A DNA stretch of 64,000 nt from Fibrobacter sp. UBA1765 (GTDB lineage: Bacteria; Fibrobacterota; Fibrobacteria; Fibrobacterales; Fibrobacteraceae): positions 177-64,176 of the forward strand of contig DCGZ01000157.1 in assembly GCA_002314675.1 (NCBI GenBank), given 5' to 3'. Of the stretch, positions 54,210 to 64,000 are shown one piece after another. The notes under the pieces are model-generated. The model was not told the DNA's origin and did no database searches. It saw only the letters and a program-made list of their open reading frames with translations. How positions within the stretch are numbered: the first letter of the stretch is position 1; each line of letters begins with the position of its first letter. The position numbers were made by a program, and so were the translations under genes.

Positions 54210-55058
54210 TTAGGCGGCAATGTCAGAAAAGTTTACGCCCATTTCATCGGCAAATTTCCTGATCTTGCCGCATGCCCTCTTGTAAATGACCCTGATGCCT
54301 TCGTGGGTCATGCCCATTTCCTTTTCCAAGTCCCTGAAGTTTAGGCGTTCGCCGTTAAAGCCGTCATAAGCCCTTACGACATAGAGCTCCTTTTCGTTCA
54401 GCACGGCCAGAGCCTTTGAAATAAAGGATTCCTGTTCCTTGAGAACAATCCCGAATTCGGGACCGTTTTCGTTGCTATCAGCAATGCTGTCGATTCTGCT
54501 TTCTTTGCTGTCTTCAAATTGGCTTTGGTCCAAGGATATGGCGCTGTAGTTGCCAAGTATCAAGGTCTTTTCGCTTTCGTCGCTGTCTTCAACATCGTCT
54601 TCTTCGCAGCTTTCAAATTCTACGAAGGCGTTTTGCTTGAGCTTTTTATTTAGCTGCCTTTGTTCCCTTTGAACATTGGCCGGTATGTGCACTATGGAAT
54701 CCTGACTGTTTATGAGGTCCATGATTGCAGATTTCATTGACCAGATGGCGTGAGTGCGAATGCATGTGCCGCGGCTTGGGTCAAAAGTCCTTAATGCCAT
54801 TAGAAAGCCGTAGACCGCAGCCGAAAACAGGTCGTCTTGTGTCAGCCTCTTTGTTTGGTACTTGGCTGCAGTTGCCTTTATGAACTTGAGGTTTGCCTTG
54901 ACAAGCTTGTCTTCGGCGATTCTCTTTTCTGCAGAGGACTTTGAGTAGAGCGCCTTTTCGATCAGTGCGGCTTCTTCTGCAGCGGAAAGCTGCGAAATGC
55001 TTGCAGAAAGAAGCTGTTCGTAGGTGTTGGAACGTGGTTGTGTTTTGACGTTAGCCAT
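54210..55058 (-). CDS. divergent sigma-70-family factor, paralog 1 (282 aa)
   Basis: Region-2-like LVKANLKFIKATAAKY...FDPSRG..IRTHAIWSMKSAI...IVHIPAN. Acidic linker. Region-4 HTH FRDLEKEMGMTHEGIRVIYKRACGKIR. Confidence 0.8.
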   Translation of the reverse strand: MANVKTQPRSNTYEQLLSASISQLSAAEEAALIEKALYSKSSAEKRIAEDKLVKANLKFIKATAAKYQTKRLTQDDLFSAAVYGFLMALRTFDPSRGTCIRTHAIWSMKSAIMDLINSQDSIVHIPANVQREQRQLNKKLKQNAFVEFESCEEDDVEDSDESEKTLILGNYSAISLDQSQFEDSKESRIDSIADSNENGPEFGIVLKEQESFISKALAVLNEKELYVVRAYDGFNGERLNFRDLEKEMGMTHEGIRVIYKRACGKIRKFADEMGVNFSDIAA

Positions 55059-55306
55059 AACGTTTTATCCTTGAAATTTTTGAATGACACTGATAAGATG
55101 CCCCGTGGAGTCTGGGGCACCCTGAGATTTGCGAAAATGGTGAAAACCATTTTTTTAAGGTGATGGTGCGGTTTGCACCTACGAATATTTTGGGGAAATT
55201 ACGCAGTGATCAAAAAAAGCGATAGGGGAGCTTGTTTTCAAAGATCTTTGTTGGATATAATATAGAAAATAGGGGGGATCCCCTATTTTAAGGGACTGGC
55301 GCAAAA

Positions 55307-56128
55307 TCAGGAGAAGTAGAAAGAGTGCTTGTCTACTTTCTTTGCCTCGGCTCTTTGGCGGAGCTTTTCTATGGCCGCGTTTCGGATTTGACGGATGCGT
55401 TCGCGTGAAATATCCATGCAGCTTTCAAGTTCACGGTAGTTCTGGACATCTCCAAAAAAGCCGCAATTTGCCTTCACGAGGTACGATTCCCTTTGCGGAA
55501 GGCTTGAAAGAAGTTCTTCGCAGAGTTTTTTCTGCTCGATTTCATCAATGTACGCTTCTGTGGAAAAGGAGCTGTCGCTGATGCTTGCCGCAAGAGGTTC
55601 GCGGCTTGATTCGCCCTTGATGCTTGTCGGCAAATCAATGGATACTGTTTTCACGAATGCCTGCCTTGCATTGTCTTGTGCTTCTGCGTCTACGGTTTTG
55701 CCGGAATCTAAAAGCCTTGTAACCTTGCGGCGTTCAAGAATCCTGTTTGCAGGGATATGTACGAGGCTTTCCTGCTGGTTCAAGAATGCCGTGATTGCGC
55801 CACGTATTGCCCAGATGGCGTGTGTTATGAACTTGTTTCCGCGGCTTGCGTCAAAGGTGTCGATCGCTGCAACCATTGCCGTGAGCGCTTCAGAAAACAT
55901 GTCGTCCATGTCGATGGACTTGTTCTGGAATTCATTGACTGCCTTTGCGACAAAGCGGATGTTTGCGCATGCAATGCGATCGCGGGCCGCCTTGCGTGCG
56001 GCTGCCGTCTTTGCGGAATGGTATTGGTTGAAGAGCTCCTGTTCTTCGGTGGCGCTGACTGGGTTAGAAATATTTGAGGCAAGGAGCTTGTTGTAGGAAG
56101 AGTGGCTTTGGCAATTGTATGGAGTCAT
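55307..56128 (-). CDS. divergent sigma-70-family factor, paralog 2 (273 aa)
   Basis: IACANIRFVAKAVNEF...FDASRGNKFITHAIWAIRGAI...LVHIPAN. Region 4 YRELESCMDISRERIRQIRNAAIEKLR. Confidence 0.8.
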   Translation of the reverse strand: MTPYNCQSHSSYNKLLASNISNPVSATEEQELFNQYHSAKTAAARKAARDRIACANIRFVAKAVNEFQNKSIDMDDMFSEALTAMVAAIDTFDASRGNKFITHAIWAIRGAITAFLNQQESLVHIPANRILERRKVTRLLDSGKTVDAEAQDNARQAFVKTVSIDLPTSIKGESSREPLAASISDSSFSTEAYIDEIEQKKLCEELLSSLPQRESYLVKANCGFFGDVQNYRELESCMDISRERIRQIRNAAIEKLRQRAEAKKVDKHSFYFS

Positions 56129-56227
56129 ATGCTGTTATATGAATTAAAAAATCAAAAAAGCAAGTGCAGAGATTTATTTTCTCTGCCTGCTTGAAAATTT
56201 TTTGCCCGTGAAGGGCGCCTGACAGGA

Positions 56228-57016
56228 TTATTCAATGTATGTAGCGCGGTTGCCTAAGCTTTGGCGCAATTTTTTGAGTGCCTGTCTCTTGAGCTGGCCT
56301 ATGTACTGGTGGGCTACGCCTTGTTCGCGGGCGATATCATTCAGACTTTCTTCATCGCGGTAGCCCAGGCCGAATGCGCGTTCAATGACATCCTTTTCCC
56401 TTGGCTTTAATGCCTTCATGCCACCGCGGAGAATCTGGCAGATTTCCTTAGCGTACATCTCGTCTTCAAGATTTCCGTTGCTTGCCTTGAGCAAGTCTTC
56501 GATAGTGAAGTCGGAATCGTTGTCGAGCGGCATGCTTGTAGACATGTACTTTGGATTGAGATCCTTGTACAGATTGTTTTCCTTGGCATTCAGAGCTTCG
56601 CCCTTGTTTACTCGGTTGTTGAGTTCGCGGCGGGTGTCCTGCTTGTTGGACGGAATGTGGAGCAATTCACAATCTTTAAACAACTTGGAAAGCTTGCCGC
56701 GGACCTTCCAGCTGGCGTGGGTGTAGAGGCTTGCGCCGGAATTTGGGTTGTAGCTGTCGATTGCTTCACCTAGAGCGAGTGCAGCTGTATTTAATATGTC
56801 TCCGTATTCAAGGGAGGCATGGCCGTAATCCTTGATCATTTGCATGATTTCTGCAAGGTGGCTGGTGTAGAGCATTTCTCTTGCACGGGCGGCAAGTTTT
56901 GTGCCCTTGTTGTTGCGTATGATTTCGAACAGCTTGGCATCTTCTGCCGGAGTCAAACGCTTTGTGTTCTTGACGAACTTGGAGATGTTGGAGGTTTGGA
57001 ACTGGGTTGTGCGCAT
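56228..57016 (-). CDS. divergent sigma-70-family factor, paralog 3 (262 aa)
   Basis: YNPNSGASLYTHASWKVRGKL...LLHIPSN. Region 4 LNDIAREQGVAHQYIGQLKRQALKKLR. Confidence 0.75.
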   Translation of the reverse strand: MRTTQFQTSNISKFVKNTKRLTPAEDAKLFEIIRNNKGTKLAARAREMLYTSHLAEIMQMIKDYGHASLEYGDILNTAALALGEAIDSYNPNSGASLYTHASWKVRGKLSKLFKDCELLHIPSNKQDTRRELNNRVNKGEALNAKENNLYKDLNPKYMSTSMPLDNDSDFTIEDLLKASNGNLEDEMYAKEICQILRGGMKALKPREKDVIERAFGLGYRDEESLNDIAREQGVAHQYIGQLKRQALKKLRQSLGNRATYIE

Positions 57017-58381: not shown

Positions 58382-58996
58382 TTATTTGCGCTTTGCGGCC
58401 TTGAGCATTTTCTTGATGTTGCTTGCCGTTGGCGTTTGCTTTTTCTGTGCGTGATCCTTTGGCTTTTCTGGGCAAAGCAAATCTGCAGGAATTGCAGGCA
58501 AAATGCCGGTAGGCAAATTGAATGGCAAGTCCAAAAATGCCTTTAGACGCTCGAACCAATTTTTGTTCGACATGTTGAAAACGGGAATGCCCTTCAGGTC
58601 TGCCATGGCAATCGCTTGCCCCGTTCCGCCGGAAGCCTGCTTGCGGTCTTTTGCGTGCTCGCAGCCGTCCTTGGTGGAGCAGACTATGAAATCTACAGGC
58701 GTGTCGAGGTTTATGCCAAACACCTGGAACGTGTTGCGCGCAAATAAATCTAGCGCGTGTGCATATAGATGTTCTGGCGAAGGGTGCAACTCCTTTGCAA
58801 TGGCGCGCGCCTCGTCGGTTGCGTGAGCTGGCGTAAATATGTGCGCTTTTGAAGCTCGCTTGCTATCCATGCCATAACGCGTTCCACAGGCTGCTGCGTG
58901 TTTGGTTCCCTGGCTCCCGACAAATCGCGATGCCCGATGCCTGCGTATGTGAACGACTTCTTTTTGCCATTTCGGCAAGTCTGCGAAAGTTCTCAT
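58382..58996 (-). CDS. hypothetical protein with possible Rossmann/SLOG-like nucleotide-binding core and basic tail
   Basis: The segment VDFIVCSTKDGCEH...ASGGTGQAIAMADLKGIPVFNM resembles LOG/DprA/SLOG-type loops. This is a weak, memory-based call. Terminator-like hairpin ccaacacc/ggtgttgg at 58339-58363. Confidence 0.45.
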   Translation of the reverse strand: MRTFADLPKWQKEVVHIRRHRASRFVGSQGTKHAAACGTRYGMDSKRASKAHIFTPAHATDEARAIAKELHPSPEHLYAHALDLFARNTFQVFGINLDTPVDFIVCSTKDGCEHAKDRKQASGGTGQAIAMADLKGIPVFNMSNKNWFERLKAFLDLPFNLPTGILPAIPADLLCPEKPKDHAQKKQTPTASNIKKMLKAAKRK

Positions 58997-59193: not shown

Positions 59194-59400
59194 TTGTTGT
59201 GGAATTTATGCGATATAACAATGATTATTGACAATGTAACCAGAACATATTTTGAAAATTTTAAGAACCAATATGTGCTTATTGGCGGTTCTGCATGTTC
59301 CATTTGGTTTGATGTAAATGGCGGCAAGTTTAGATCGACGAAGGATTTGGACATTGTGTTGATCCTTGTGGGTAGTCAACCTTCTTCATTTACGGTGTGA
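59194..59400 (+). pseudogene. truncated nucleotidyltransferase-like fragment (AbiEii/DUF-type NTase N-terminus)
   Basis: YVLIGGSACSIWFDVNGGKFRSTKDLDIVL matches the GS...D.D minimal NTase motif, but the ORF stops after 68 aa, directly at a terminator. Confidence 0.35.
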
Positions 59401-59408
59401 ATGAACAC

Positions 59409-59436
59409 AAAAAACGGACCTTACGGTCCGTTTTTT
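59409..59436. terminator. bidirectional terminator
   Basis: aaaaaacggacc-ttac-ggtccgtttttt. Confidence 0.85.
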
Positions 59437-59463
59437 GATGTGAATTTTTTTAATGATTTGACT

Positions 59464-62398
59464 TTATTTCTCGCCAGGAAATTTTGGTTTGTGGGATTTT
59501 TCAATGGGACAGTTGTCAAATGCGTTTTTATTGTTTGTTACATTGTTAACATTCCATTCAGAGATGTCTCTGTTGAATTTGGAATCACAGAATATCCAAT
59601 CCATGTCAGCTACATTGCTAACATTCCATTTAGAAATGTCTCCATTGAATTTAGAATCACAGAACATCCAACTCATATCTTTTACATTACTTACGTTCCA
59701 GTTTGAAATGTCTCCGTTGAATTGACAATTTTGGAACATGCCTTTCATGTTTGTGACGTTACCTATGTTCCATTTGGAGATGTCTCCGTCAAATTCAGAA
59801 CATTCGAACATACCACTCATGTTCTTTACGTTGCCCGTATTCCATTTGGAAATGTCTCCATTGAATTGAGAGTTGCTGAAAATACAGCTCATGTCAGTGA
59901 TGTTGCTTGTATCAATAAAATTAAGGTTGCATTTATGGCCTTTTATTTCGATAGTCTGCTTGATTAAACTTTCCAAATGTTCTTTGTCTCGCACCTTGAT
60001 GGATATGTTGTTTCGGAATTTTGAAATAGAAAATAAAGAATGTCCATCTGTGATATTAGATATGTTCCATTTAGAGATGTCTCTATTGAATTGAGAACCT
60101 CTGAATATGCTTCTCGTATTTGTCACACTGCTTACATTCCATTCGGAGATGTCTCCATTGAATTGAGAACCTCTGAACAAGTCACTCATGTCAGTGACGT
60201 TGCTTACATTCCACTCAGAGATGTCTCCGTTGAATAATGCTTCACAGAACATACTTCTCATGTCAATGACATTGCTTACGTTCCATTCGGAGATGTCTCT
60301 GTTGAATTGAGAATTTCTGAACATGTAGCTCATGTCAGTGACCTTGCTTACGTTCCATTCAGAGAAATCTCCGTCAAATTGTGAGTTTTCGAACATATGA
60401 CTCATGTTCGTTACGTTGCTCACATTCCATTTAGAGATGTCTCCGTTGAATCTGGAGCCGCTGAACATATAGCTCATGTCAGTGATGTTGCTGACGTCAA
60501 TAAAGTTTAGATTGCAGTAGCAGCCGTTTCGTACGATAGTCTGCTTGATTAAACTTTCCAAATGTTCTTTGTCTCGCGCCTTGATGGATATGTTTGGAAA
60601 GAATTTGGAAATAGAAATCAAAGAATGCTCATCTGTGATTTTAGATATATTCCATTTAGAGATGTCTCCGTTGAATTGGGAATCACTGAATATCCAATCC
60701 ATGTCAGCTACATTGCTAACATTCCATTTAGAGATGTCTCTAGTGAATTGAGAATTTCTGAACATGTAGCTCATGTCAGTGACATTGCTTACGTTCCATT
60801 TAGAGATATCTCCGTTGAATTTAGATCCGCTGAACATACTTCTCATGTCAGTAACGTTGCTAACATTCCATTTAGAGATGTCTCCGTTGAAGCTGGAACC
60901 ATTGAACATTTCGCTCATGTTCGTTACGTTGCTCACATTCCATCTAGAAATGTCACCATTGAATTGGGAATTTGAATAGGAATCACCTTCGTCATCAGAC
61001 CAGGAAGTAAATAAGTTACTCATGTCAGTGATGTTGCTGACGTCAATAAAGTTTAGATTGCAGTAGCAGCCGTTTCGTACGATAGTCTGATTGATTAAAC
61101 TTTCCAAATGTTCTTTGTCTCGCGCCTTGATGGATATGTTTGGAAAGAATTTGGAAAGGGAAATCAAAGAACGCTCATCTGTTTCAGATACATTCCATTT
61201 AGAGATGTCGCCGTTGAATTTAGACCTGCTGAATATCCAATCCATGTCATCTACATTGCTTACATTCCATTTAGAGATGTCTCTATTGAATTCAGACCCG
61301 CTGAACATGTGGCTCATGTCAGTGACATTGCTTACATTCCATTCGGAGATGTCTCCGTTGAATTGAGAATTTCTGAACATGTAGCTCATGTTCGTTACGT
61401 TGCTCACATCCCACTTGGAAATGTCTCCGTTGAATTTAGAATCCAGAAACATGACGCTCATGTCGGTCACATTGCTCATGTTCCATTTTGAGATGTTGCC
61501 ATTGAATTTAGACCCACTGAACATGTGGCTCATGTCAGTGACATTGCTTACATCCCATTTGCAAATGTCTCCGTTGAATTGAGAATATTCGAACATTCCG
61601 CTCATATTTGTGACGTTGCTTACGTCCCATTTAGAGATGTCTCCGTTGAAGCTGGAACCATTGAACATATGGCTCATGTCCGTTACGTTGCTCACATTCC
61701 ATCTAGAAATGTCTCCGTTGAATCGGGAATTGGAATAGGAATTGCCTTCGTCGTCGGACCAAGAATCATCTTCATCATCAGGCCAGGAAGCAAATAAATA
61801 ACTCATGTCGGTAACATTACTGACATCAATGAAATTCAAGTCGCAATTGTAGCCGTTTAGTTCAATAGTTTGCTTAATCAAATTTTCCAAATGGCTTTTG
61901 TCTCGAGCCTTGATAGATATGTTGGTGTGAAATTTAGATAGAAAAATCAAAGAATGTTCATCAGTTTCATTGGTGATTTTGGATACATTCCATCTAGAAA
62001 TGTCTCCGTTGAATCGTGAGCTGGAATAGGAATCGCCTTCGTCGTCGGACCAGGAATCATCTTCATCATCCGACCAGGAACCAAATAAATCGCTCATGTT
62101 TGTCACGTTGCTCACGTCCCATTCAGAGATGTCTCCGTTGAATTGAGACTCGTTGAACATGCCCTCCATGTTTGTTACATTGCTCACATCCCACTTGGAG
62201 ATGTCCCCATTGAATTGTGAATTGCAGAACATTTCGCTCATGTTTGTCACATTGCTCACATCCCATTTGGAAATGTCTCCGTTGAATTCAGAATCCTTGA
62301 ACATTTCACTCATGTCCGTCACATTACTTACATTAATGAAATTTAGATCGCATTCGTTTCCTAATTTTTGAATCGCCTCACGAATAAGTTCGGATAAG
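59464..62398 (-). repeat. coding tandem repeat array (about 75-nt units in 5 higher-order modules)
   Basis: Module heads at approx. 59890, 60475, 61021, 61802 and 62322. 60475-60612 and 61021-61158 are almost identical at the DNA level. Confidence 0.9.
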
Positions 62399-63582
62399 TG
62401 TTCTTTATTTTGTGCCACGATTCTTTTTCTTGCTTTCTGAGCAATAAAATTAACCATGCCTTCAAGGACTTCATCGCTGTAATAAACACCGTGAACTCGT
62501 CTGGTGTCACTGCCGTTGGCCGTTTCAACCAGCATGTCGCCTTTACCAAGTAAATCTTCTGCTCCGCCTTCTCCAAGGATTGTTCTGCTGTCGATGTCTG
62601 TTCGAACTTTAAATGCAAATGTTGCGGCAAGGTTTGCCTTGAGATCCCCAGTCACGACTTTTGTACTTGGTCTTTGCGTTGCAAGTATTATATGGATTCC
62701 TGCTGCTCGACTTTTTTGGGAAAGTCTTTGAACGCAGTTCGTAAGTTCCTTGCCGTTGCTTAACATTAAATCTGCAAATTCATCTACAATGCAGACTATG
62801 TATTTCATTTGCTTTTGGATAGGTTGTTTTTGGTTGAATGCCTTGATGTTTTTTGTCTTGGTTTTTGCTAAAAGGTCATATCGGCGTTCCATTTCGTCGA
62901 TAAGCCAATTTAGCTTGTCTATGCATTCTTCTGCATTGACGAGTACAGTGTTGTCTATGACATTTGGCAGTTTTTCAAACGTTCCAAGTTCAACGCCCTG
63001 TTTTGGGTCAATGAGCATCAACTGATATTCATGCTCGCTTTTGTGCTTTAGCAGGCTGGCTATGATGCTGTTTATGCATACACTTTTCCCGGAACCGGTT
63101 TGGCCAGCAATGAGCAAGTGAGGAGCTTCGGCCAAGTCTATGGCTACGCTTTCTCCAGTAATGCCTACACCTATTTCTAATGGCAGCTCCATTTGGCTGC
63201 AATCGGCGTTTACATTGCCCGGTAAAACATTCTTGCGATTTTTTACAGGAATGTCTATAGCGACGCAGCCTAAATCGCTATTGATGGAACAGCTTAGCTG
63301 CTTTGTCATTAAGGCTATGGCTAGGTCATCTTTTAAGCTTATTATGGAACTGGCTTTTGTTCCTATTGCTGGTCGAACGTTTATTCTTGTAATGACCGGG
63401 CCGCATTCAATGCTGTGGAATGTGGCCTTTACCCCAAAGCTTTCCAGGTTTTGTACAATTTGTTCACCAAGGGATTCATCTGCAGGATTGGTTAAATCTT
63501 CTTTTTCGCTGCAAAAGCGCTTTATCATTTCATTGCGTTCAGATTTTGTGATGCTAGGACTGACGAATTCAAATTCCATCAT
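59464..63582 (-). CDS. FtsK/SpoIIIE-type ATPase fused to about 28 DUF285/BspA-like leucine-rich-type repeats (1372 aa)
   Basis: N-terminal approx. 390 aa: Walker A IAGQTGSGKS (nt 63082-63105), Walker B IVCIVDEFADL and ILATQRPS. No TM helix or signal peptide seen. The remainder is repeats of F..S.FNGDIS.W[ND]VSNVT.MS.MF in five modules. Confidence 0.85.
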   Translation of the reverse strand: MMEFEFVSPSITKSERNEMIKRFCSEKEDLTNPADESLGEQIVQNLESFGVKATFHSIECGPVITRINVRPAIGTKASSIISLKDDLAIALMTKQLSCSINSDLGCVAIDIPVKNRKNVLPGNVNADCSQMELPLEIGVGITGESVAIDLAEAPHLLIAGQTGSGKSVCINSIIASLLKHKSEHEYQLMLIDPKQGVELGTFEKLPNVIDNTVLVNAEECIDKLNWLIDEMERRYDLLAKTKTKNIKAFNQKQPIQKQMKYIVCIVDEFADLMLSNGKELTNCVQRLSQKSRAAGIHIILATQRPSTKVVTGDLKANLAATFAFKVRTDIDSRTILGEGGAEDLLGKGDMLVETANGSDTRRVHGVYYSDEVLEGMVNFIAQKARKRIVAQNKEHLSELIREAIQKLGNECDLNFINVSNVTDMSEMFKDSEFNGDISKWDVSNVTNMSEMFCNSQFNGDISKWDVSNVTNMEGMFNESQFNGDISEWDVSNVTNMSDLFGSWSDDEDDSWSDDEGDSYSSSRFNGDISRWNVSKITNETDEHSLIFLSKFHTNISIKARDKSHLENLIKQTIELNGYNCDLNFIDVSNVTDMSYLFASWPDDEDDSWSDDEGNSYSNSRFNGDISRWNVSNVTDMSHMFNGSSFNGDISKWDVSNVTNMSGMFEYSQFNGDICKWDVSNVTDMSHMFSGSKFNGNISKWNMSNVTDMSVMFLDSKFNGDISKWDVSNVTNMSYMFRNSQFNGDISEWNVSNVTDMSHMFSGSEFNRDISKWNVSNVDDMDWIFSRSKFNGDISKWNVSETDERSLISLSKFFPNISIKARDKEHLESLINQTIVRNGCYCNLNFIDVSNITDMSNLFTSWSDDEGDSYSNSQFNGDISRWNVSNVTNMSEMFNGSSFNGDISKWNVSNVTDMRSMFSGSKFNGDISKWNVSNVTDMSYMFRNSQFTRDISKWNVSNVADMDWIFSDSQFNGDISKWNISKITDEHSLISISKFFPNISIKARDKEHLESLIKQTIVRNGCYCNLNFIDVSNITDMSYMFSGSRFNGDISKWNVSNVTNMSHMFENSQFDGDFSEWNVSKVTDMSYMFRNSQFNRDISEWNVSNVIDMRSMFCEALFNGDISEWNVSNVTDMSDLFRGSQFNGDISEWNVSSVTNTRSIFRGSQFNRDISKWNISNITDGHSLFSISKFRNNISIKVRDKEHLESLIKQTIEIKGHKCNLNFIDTSNITDMSCIFSNSQFNGDISKWNTGNVKNMSGMFECSEFDGDISKWNIGNVTNMKGMFQNCQFNGDISNWNVSNVKDMSWMFCDSKFNGDISKWNVSNVADMDWIFCDSKFNRDISEWNVNNVTNNKNAFDNCPIEKSHKPKFPGEK

Positions 63583-63794
63583 GATGAAACCTCGTAAGGC
63601 TTGGGTATGTTGTTTACATTCGCTAATATATATTCTTTATCGGAAAAGAAAATTGCAAATGAATCAAAACCGGACCGTAAAGACTGAATCTCCCCAAAAT
63701 TTACGCTCGCTTTCATAAACTTTCAATTCCCCGCTTGCCTTTTTCAAGAAAAATTTCATAATGCCTTTTGTACCTCAACCAAGGAACGGTCGTT

Positions 63795-64000
63795 ATGGAA
63801 CAGTCTTTAATCACTATCCCGACAATGAAACAGGTTATCGCTTTCTTTGGATGGGGCGATAGCCTGCTTGCGCTTTCTGGTGTTAGCCTGGTTTTGGCGT
63901 TGTGCGCGGTGTTCTTTTTGGTTGTCGTAGGCTTTTTTATGAACCTGGCCGAAAAAGCGGAACTTTGCATTCTTCGCAAAAGTTTCGGCTGGTCGTTTGC
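63795..64000 (+). CDS. partial ORF, small membrane protein (runs off the window end)
   Basis: ATG 8 nt after AAGGAA. Translates to MEQSLITIPTMKQVIAFFGWGDSLLALSGVSLVLALCAVFFLVVVGFFM..., with clear TM character. Not in the track because no stop is reached. Confidence 0.4.
   Translation, partial: MEQSLITIPTMKQVIAFFGWGDSLLALSGVSLVLALCAVFFLVVVGFFMNLAEKAELCILRKSFGWSF

Follow-up and report, generated by a model that had tools for sequence, protein, structure and literature searches.

A soluble FtsK-type motor fused to a DUF285/PARCEL repeat array in a strain-variable island of Fibrobacter sp. UBA1765

In a 64,000-nucleotide stretch of the Fibrobacter sp. UBA1765 genome (contig DCGZ01000157.1, positions 177 to 64,176; hereafter the window), we analyzed a single uninterrupted open reading frame (ORF) on the minus strand, 59464-63582, which stays open for 4.1 kb and encodes 1372 amino acids (aa). 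Comparison of the ORF list with Pfam and NCBIfam showed that the product is an FtsK alpha/beta motor followed by five DUF285/PARCEL modules: the motor, aa 1-388, is joined in frame to 984 aa of repeats. The best 19-residue Kyte-Doolittle window over the whole protein scores 1.16, i.e., there is neither a transmembrane segment nor a signal peptide. We conclude that this is a real cytoplasmic fusion in a single polypeptide, carried as an accessory gene. The exact protein is recorded once, on a 217,861-bp contig of the Joint Genome Institute (JGI) metagenome 3300001598, a sample taken from the feces of a six-year-old Asian elephant (PMC4160196). The preliminary description of this locus, made from the sequence alone, knew of no described system with such a fusion, and our literature search found no description either.

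The motor half and its relatives

The motor half (62419-63582, minus strand) contains the domains FtsK_alpha (PF17854, aa 35-112, E 1.2e-13) and FtsK_SpoIIIE (PF01580, aa 128-306, E 4.1e-47), both above the Pfam cut-offs, the second corresponding to the RecA-type beta domain. Ahead of the alpha domain there are just 34 residues, in which no domain was recognized. The preliminary description had reported an intact P-loop of the FtsK/HerA class, and all three motifs are indeed present: GQTGSGKS at aa 160-167 (Walker A, G160-S167; codons at 63082-63105, minus strand), VDEFADL at aa 266-272 (Walker B, D267/E268) and ATQRPS at aa 301-306 (including T302-S306). All catalytic columns are invariant in alignments of the motor with its relatives. 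The closest PDB sequence, 2IUU, matches over both motor domains with E 1.6e-70. In an AlphaFold2 monomer model of aa 1-560, which is uninformative for the repeat part, the predicted local distance difference test (pLDDT) is 90-97 over aa 6-390. Foldseek aligned the modeled motor to FtsK on double-stranded DNA (6T8B) with a template modeling (TM) score of 0.86 and a root-mean-square deviation of 2.6 A; the TM scores for 6T8B and 2IUT span 0.83-0.86, and the fold is far closer to FtsK than to TcpA (TM 0.65), EccC/EssC or HerA. The N-terminus is therefore a genuine FtsK-class motor, as had been proposed, and its homology leads us to expect an ATP-driven hexameric ring for pumping double-stranded DNA.

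The fusion protein shares with FtsK/SpoIIIE of E. coli and P. aeruginosa (2IUS, 2IUT, 2IUU, 6T8B) the alpha and beta domains, Walker A and B, the TQRPS motif and ~38% identity, but it lacks their four-helix membrane anchor, linker and gamma winged-helix domain, and its C-terminus is the 984-aa array. The absence of anchor and gamma domain, noted earlier, held in the Pfam search: neither FtsK_4TM (PF13491) nor Ftsk_gamma (PF09397) matched, nor was any hydrophobic segment present, whereas both domains were found in canonical relatives. The gamma domain of FtsK reads the FtsK orienting polar sequences (KOPS) on DNA, and interacts with and activates XerD. Without such a domain, neither KOPS reading nor XerD activation can proceed in the known way, and the fusion protein, though of the FtsK/SpoIIIE motor family, is not a canonical FtsK.

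The nearest relatives of the motor, at 50-55% identity (mean 54%), are soluble, 467-563 aa long, and have the alpha and beta domains without the gamma domain. Canonical FtsK proteins come next, with 41-45% identity among the relatives listed and a mean of 44% over core columns. In a neighbor-joining tree the window ATPase is nested inside the gamma-less clade, as sister to P0001. Members of this clade (P0001-P0043) resemble the fusion protein in being soluble and in having the gamma domain replaced by a variable tail from the same position; they differ in that their own tails are 80-170 aa of unrelated sequence, none of it DUF285 (PF03382 is absent from all listed relatives of the motor), and in that they lie on phage-like contigs, whereas the fusion gene lies in a bacterial chromosome. 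Their contigs are 350-470 kb long and carry small ORFs without Pfam matches, together with Tad3 and Phage_tail_C, and one is classed as viral by IMG/VR; they are probably huge phages. The PHROG family of phage FtsK/SpoIIIE-like proteins matches the motor with E 2e-85. A comparison case for gamma-less motors is the FtsK-like gp203 of Cluster J mycobacteriophages (PMC3706429).

In PADLOC, only the ATPase core matched, to the FtsK-type cores of SspH (208 bits) and mad8. The NCBIfam models for EssC/EccC scored 95 bits against cut-offs of 509-778, and TraB scored 58 bits against 800. Type VII EssC/EccC proteins have several tandem ATPase domains with transmembrane or FHA parts, whereas the fusion protein has one ATPase domain and no transmembrane segment; conjugative TraB/TcpA proteins have a membrane anchor and a conjugation context, whereas no conjugation gene lies in the island described below. 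The best match to a STAND-type domain (signal transduction ATPases with numerous domains), nSTAND_NTPase5, reached 23.2 bits against a cut-off of 34 and covered the P-loop region only. The motor fold, much closer to the FtsK that pumps double-stranded DNA than to EccC/EssC or TcpA, speaks against the suggestion that a secretion ATPase had been fused to its substrate.

The repeat array

The array (aa 389-1372) matches DUF285 (PF03382) in Pfam with E 8.4e-224 and the NCBIfam PARCEL repeat TIGR02167 in 18 stretches with E 8.2e-92. The preliminary description saw about 980 aa of approximately 25-aa repeats; the assignment to DUF285 stands, while the period is 24 aa, and instead of one continuous array there are 28 repeat units in five capped modules of 4, 8, 5, 6 and 5. 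Each module begins with an N-terminal helical cap (..KARDKEHLESLIKQTI....C.LNFIDVS), continues with the repeats and ends in a short closing segment. All five are on the minus strand: module 1 (aa 393-554, 61921-62406) has a cap and four repeats, one with an acidic insert; module 2 (aa 555-815, 61138-61920) has a cap and eight repeats, with an acidic insert in the first; module 3 (aa 816-997, 60592-61137) has a cap and five repeats; module 4 (aa 998-1192, 60007-60591) has a cap and six repeats; and module 5 (aa 1193-1372, 59467-60006) has a cap, five repeats and the tail ...KSHKPKFPGEK. The cap DNA of modules 3 and 4 shares a 164-nt stretch with 98% identity, so the module count could be mis-assembled.

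Module 4 was modeled with AlphaFold2 with a mean pLDDT of 97 and a predicted TM score (pTM) of 0.91, and the model consists of the cap helix and then one short strand per 24 aa. All 50 of its best matches in the PDB are leucine-rich repeat (LRR) proteins, although these matches are weak (best E 0.037, TM at most 0.56). The modules are thus predicted to be LRR-like solenoids, at the level of the structural class only, in agreement with the LRR-type assignment first made for the repeat. Module 4 also matches strongly to viral predicted structures of DUF285 proteins, whose annotations include a protein with a protein-kinase domain and a putative E3 ubiquitin ligase; these set a precedent for the use of DUF285 to target enzymes inside the cell.

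The closest relatives of the modules are small single-module DUF285 proteins of 250-380 aa, with 45-60% identity per module. A hydrophobic N-terminus is absent in 112 of the 118 closest complete relatives (95%), many of which start right at the cap helix. The closest named relative, P0434 of Fibrobacter sp. UWT2, is labeled "surface protein" and is itself signal-less; sources label such relatives either this way or as "BspA family leucine-rich repeat surface protein". Because the great majority of relatives carry no signal, its absence is the rule in this subclass and the "surface" label is a transferred annotation. The missing signal peptide, which had been taken for an anomaly of this protein, is therefore none. 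The paper that defined PARCEL already left "untargeted" ORFs without explanation (PMC2996958). The stand-alone proteins, i.e., P0434, its tandem neighbor and the untargeted PARCEL ORFs, share with the array the cap helix (..EHL.ELI....G.ECDLNFIDVS), the 24-aa repeat and the lack of a signal; they differ in being single modules without an enzymatic domain, whereas the fusion protein strings five of them behind an ATPase. The array thus belongs to the DUF285/PARCEL family and not to its surface-lipoprotein class, as it has no signal peptide, lipobox or membrane-targeting sequence.

The array has a net charge of -56. Such a strongly acidic array most likely has a protein or other non-DNA ligand and not DNA. 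For the repeats, the ratio of nonsynonymous to synonymous differences (pN/pS) was 0.29, with a proportion of synonymous differences (pS) of 0.63. Purifying selection combined with near-saturated synonymous sites indicates that the array is old and maintained, and is neither junk nor the result of recent slippage.

Several further features of the array were observed. Modules 1-3 each have one repeat in which an acidic low-complexity insert (SWSDDEDDSWSDDEGDSYS) separates the MS.LF part from the FNGDIS part (62028-62080 and the equivalent segments in modules 2 and 3; aa 500-520, 599-619 and 860-873), and a divergent array allele from a sister strain (contig L123) carries a comparable insert, FWSDEDGDFYS. 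The strand opposite the array (plus strand, 59500-62300) is open for up to 137 codons and has its own periodic pattern, ..IPFRDVSVEFR..; antisense ORFs such as 60562-60975 and 61108-61491 (plus strand) resemble the "palindromic" property described for PARCEL. A scan of the array DNA for inverted repeats returned two short pairs only, both in linkers.

The junction, the strain-variable island and the rarity of the fusion

The junction (aa 370-410; 62353-62473, minus strand) was delimited from the alignment, the DNA sequence and the AlphaFold2 model, in which the ATPase end and the first cap are connected by a predicted helix and pLDDT drops from 85 to 61. Homology to the gamma-less relatives stops at about aa 388, exactly where the variable tails of these relatives begin. 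The sequence ..KRI-V389-AQNKEHLSELI.. then matches the extreme N-terminus of stand-alone DUF285 homologs (M-IAQN-R/K-EHL..), with V389, a GTG codon (62416-62418), at the position of their start methionine. Fibrobacter sp. UWT2 has two separately translated tandem DUF285 genes 48 nt apart. Taken together, the junction match, the GTG codon and these tandem genes suggest that the fusion is an in-frame join of a motor gene and a string of once-separate module genes. The first cap directly adjoins the ATPase and falls into none of the repeat families, its sequence being unique, and this argues against a chimeric assembly. An intrinsic terminator-like hairpin with a 13-bp stem and a T run lies 27 nt past the stop codon (59408-59437, minus strand); the fusion gene therefore appears to end its own transcript.

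The window is chromosomal, with yidC, rnpA, rpmH, a DEAD-box helicase gene, a GH5 cellulase gene and parts of type IX secretion, a content in keeping with the FCB group; rpmH is called beside rnpA-yidC in sister contigs. No tRNA gene and no Rfam family at the gathering threshold was found across the whole 64 kb. Comparison with the sister contigs revealed that the fusion gene occupies a variable site, with a GT4 glycosyltransferase gene on one side, a 166-aa gene on the other, and flanks that are 95-99% identical. The site is empty in L121; in L119/L120 and L122 it holds a gene pair of 254 and 322 aa, with or without a DprA-like gene; in the strain of the window it holds the fusion gene, a PDDEXK_2 gene and two ORFs; and in L123 it holds the divergent array allele, in which the same C-terminal tail is kept. 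The island covers 59241-64000 of the window and runs ~2.4 kb past the window end, with a 208-aa membrane protein, the PDDEXK_2 gene and a 200-aa ORF; its guanine-plus-cytosine (GC) content is low, 0.407 compared to 0.479 in the flanks. The variable parts comprise only 59241 onwards and the DprA-like gene, and no other phage or conjugation genes were found in the island.

Between the array alleles of the window and L123, pS is 0.83 and the proportion of nonsynonymous differences (pN) is 0.27, whereas pS is 0.04-0.21 for five neighboring genes. This difference indicates that the alleles are old lineages swapped by recombination and not products of local hypermutation. Two other assemblies (L020 and L021) reproduce the 3' end of the window allele with 100% identity and then break in the repeats.

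At the right edge of the island lies segment B (59242-59395), with a truncated 68-aa N-terminal remnant (59194-59400, plus strand) of the 254/266-aa gene that is intact in L119, L122 and L123. This gene overlaps the 322-aa gene in L119, L120 and L122; L123 has a 266-aa gene without the 322-aa gene. Neither product matched anything in Pfam, PADLOC, NCBIfam or the PDB sequences, and the idea that the 254- and 322-aa genes are an AbiE-like nucleotidyltransferase toxin pair was dropped, as these sources gave no confirmation. Blastn of L119, L121 and L122 against L018 showed that a 158-bp segment A, just upstream of the fusion gene (63715-63872; L018:9711-9868), comes in all other strains directly after the left flank (the GT4 gene). 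Another copy with 71% identity is located ~1.9 kb further upstream in the island (L018:7849-7981), beside the PDDEXK_2 gene; the duplicated segment could be a recombination or insertion-site repeat.

We also considered whether the whole of 53.8-63.6 kb is a phage-derived island and rejected this, given that the sigma genes, the 166-aa gene and the helicase gene are conserved flanks in all strains. Just outside the island are three tandem paralogous sigma-70-family genes of 282, 273 and 262 aa (54210-57016, minus strand); all match the phage family phrog_351 and are conserved in every sister strain, and the adjacency of three is unusual. The DprA-like gene (58382-58996, minus strand) encodes 204 aa and matches only the phage "DprA-like DNA recombination-mediator" family phrog_768 (E 1e-27); among the sister strains, L121 lacks the gene, L119/L120 have a 162-aa call, and L123 carries a 75%-identical allele of 230 aa.

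The fusion is very rare. A second copy of the junction was not found: scans of genome collections and metagenomes for close relatives of the ATPase and the junction gave nothing closer than 39%, and it should be noted that the homology search also missed the cluster of the query itself and P0256, described next, so that the lack of a near-identical match there does not amount to absence. P0256 is a metagenomic protein of 889 aa, found in four assemblies (L023:10001-12670; also L024, L025 and L026), in which a capped DUF285 array is followed by FtsK alpha and beta domains without gamma. It was picked out by local BLAST, the search with aa 1-560 being dominated by giant DUF285 proteins whose scores were summed over many stretches. 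P0256 has the same two blocks in one soluble protein; it differs in that the array comes first, in that its ATPase is 25% identical to that of the window and ~33% identical to canonical FtsK, from which it is derived, and in its degenerate Walker A (GNSNSGRT) and Walker B (IDDAD), with which it may be incapable of ATP hydrolysis. A search with the P0256 ATPase for further reverse-order fusions returned canonical FtsK only, at ~33%. The combination of motor and DUF285 thus arose at least twice.

The surroundings of P0256 and of the UWT2 genes were also noted. The P0256 gene adjoins an AAA-ATPase_like gene and a double-AAA gene, and the stand-alone DUF285 genes of UWT2 (L027) are also a few genes away from a double-AAA gene, the two AAA proteins being 30% identical. 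The 333-aa gene upstream of the UWT2 DUF285 gene (L027:8951-9952) encodes a DUF285 protein ~50% identical to the window modules with no Pfam match on record; precomputed annotations therefore undercount DUF285.

Proposed role and competing explanations

We tentatively favor the reading that the fusion protein works in the cytoplasm as a DNA pump and that its multivalent binding array provides the targeting, with an accessory and probably conflict-related function. The array stands where canonical FtsK has its gamma domain, and each module corresponds to one of the small signal-less DUF285 proteins that occur on their own. The array would act as a multivalent targeting or sensing adaptor, with 30 modules per hexamer, and would recruit the pump to a specific partner, for which a component of an invading phage or plasmid or of a competing element is the most plausible candidate; the motor would then act on the DNA associated with this partner. 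The presence or absence of the gene as a unit and the very divergent array alleles point to an accessory, conflict-type role and not to housekeeping. The invader-sensing idea of the preliminary description thereby gains circumstantial support from the strain-variable island.

Anti-invader systems have captured FtsK/HerA domains, some with FtsK-alpha, on repeated occasions, and combine them with fast-evolving binding domains (PMC10853773, PMC12839542). The fusion resembles such cases (DndH/DptH, SspH, BREX-related) in the recruitment of an FtsK/HerA domain by fusion and in its accessory, variable location. Those proteins, however, carry a nuclease, inactive methylase or winged helix-turn-helix domain and have partner genes, whereas the fusion protein has an LRR-like array only, with neither a nuclease nor a partner gene found, and lacks the composition that defines DndH/SspH-type capture systems (DndFGH, SspFGH, BRC). 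The likeness to NACHT-LRR proteins and bacterial STAND/Avs sensors that had been pointed out survives as a likeness of layout, in which an NTPase comes first and a repeat array, a possible sensor, makes up the C-terminus. It does not extend to homology: the NTPase is of the FtsK-HerA ring translocase class, nSTAND_NTPase5 stays below its cut-off, and no N-terminal effector is present. The fusion protein is thus analogous, and not homologous, to STAND and nucleotide-binding LRR (NLR) sensors.

A more specific proposal, which we consider unlikely as it stands, is a single-gene anti-invader system that would follow the logic of NLR sensors with a DNA pump as its base. In this proposal a hypervariable LRR-like array would recognize a phage or plasmid protein and place or activate a hexameric FtsK motor that captures, strips or expels invader DNA, and array alleles would be exchanged between strains as specificity cassettes.

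A number of observations weigh against a targeted, conflict-related pump. Pfam and NCBIfam found no nuclease or other effector domain in the fusion protein, which is a singleton at 90% identity. The junction between ATPase and array was seen in one metagenome assembly only; L123, L020 and L021 all break inside the repeats before reaching any ATPase half, and the GTG at V389 might permit separate translation of the array. No neighbor was recognized as a defense gene by PADLOC, Pfam or NCBIfam; the site is established as a variable island and not as a defense island. No structural phage hallmark was found in the flanks of the motor relatives, whose contigs are only probably of phage origin. DUF285 was found in the flanks of none of ~90 other FtsK-type loci examined; thus, there is no wider family from which function could be deduced.

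An alternative that we likewise hold to be unlikely, though worth weighing, is that a huge phage or other mobile element left the gene behind as cargo. The gene would serve, or would once have served, this element by partitioning or handling its genome or by host takeover, and the array would anchor the motor to an element-encoded structure instead of sensing an invader. The nesting of the motor in a clade on phage-like contigs, the PHROG match, and the low-GC island with its PDDEXK_2 transposase-like gene all favor this explanation. DUF285 is also abundant in giant viruses and phages and is packaged in virions of Aureococcus anophagefferens virus (AaV; PMC7507832), and phage FtsK-like proteins in which the motor alone is conserved and the C-termini diverge are known (PMC3706429). 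However, the island has no other phage or conjugation genes, the window neighbors have no relatives near phage ATPases, DUF285 is neither fused nor adjacent in any phage relative, and the gene has its own terminator, is under purifying selection and lies in a cellular chromosome.

Less probable still is an accessory cell-biological role without conflict function, in which the protein would be a second soluble DNA translocase that the array recruits to the pole, the septum or an envelope complex, taking over the localizing role that the membrane domain and linker have in FtsK. Soluble FtsK paralogs exist elsewhere in bacteria, e.g., SftA of Bacillus subtilis. The motor is complete and FtsK-like, the setting is chromosomal near rpmH-rnpA-yidC, and a DprA-like gene lies downstream. 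Conversely, the gene is absent in close strains whose flanks are 95-99% identical, the array alleles are at saturated synonymous divergence, the island has a low GC content, and the motor lacks the gamma domain that would orient it on the chromosome.

We consider it improbable that the fusion is an artefact or accident, i.e., a mis-assembly or sequencing error that joined two genes, or a recent chance fusion without selected function. The single assembly with the junction, the breaks of other assemblies in the repeats, the near-identical 164-nt caps that could mislead assemblers, the GTG at a former start position and the occurrence of both halves elsewhere as separate proteins would all fit such an origin. 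Against it stand the unique first cap contiguous with the ATPase, the frame open over 4.1 kb, the intact catalytic residues, and the purifying selection and saturated synonymous sites of an old, maintained array; in addition, four assemblies agree on the independent reverse-order P0256. An ordinary surface or secreted protein of the DUF285/BspA type, or a secretion ATPase fused to its substrate, is very improbable: relatives carry surface-protein names in the sources and the host has type IX secretion components, but the protein has no signal peptide or hydrophobic segment and no match to a type IX C-terminal sorting domain in Pfam or NCBIfam, 95% of its closest relatives are likewise signal-less, and its motor has the fold of a DNA pump and not of EccC/EssC. 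The observations named at the outset as fatal to the fusion (an N-terminus unrelated to FtsK/HerA, two separate genes in the homologs, a cryptic signal or membrane segment, or a TraB-like gene of a known conjugative element) were not made.

The practical value of the finding is limited for now, as the host is uncultured and the architecture very rare. If the reading of a DNA pump targeted by a multivalent array is true, this would be the first LRR-type array that directs an FtsK DNA pump. The "NTPase plus repeat sensor" design of immune receptors, which extends from bacteria to animals, would gain a new NTPase class, and FtsK/HerA motors, recurrently captured by conflict systems, would gain a new partner. 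Two large groups would also become accessible to functional study for the first time: the signal-less, "untargeted" DUF285/PARCEL proteins, which have been unexplained since 2010, and the gamma-less FtsK-like proteins of very large phages.

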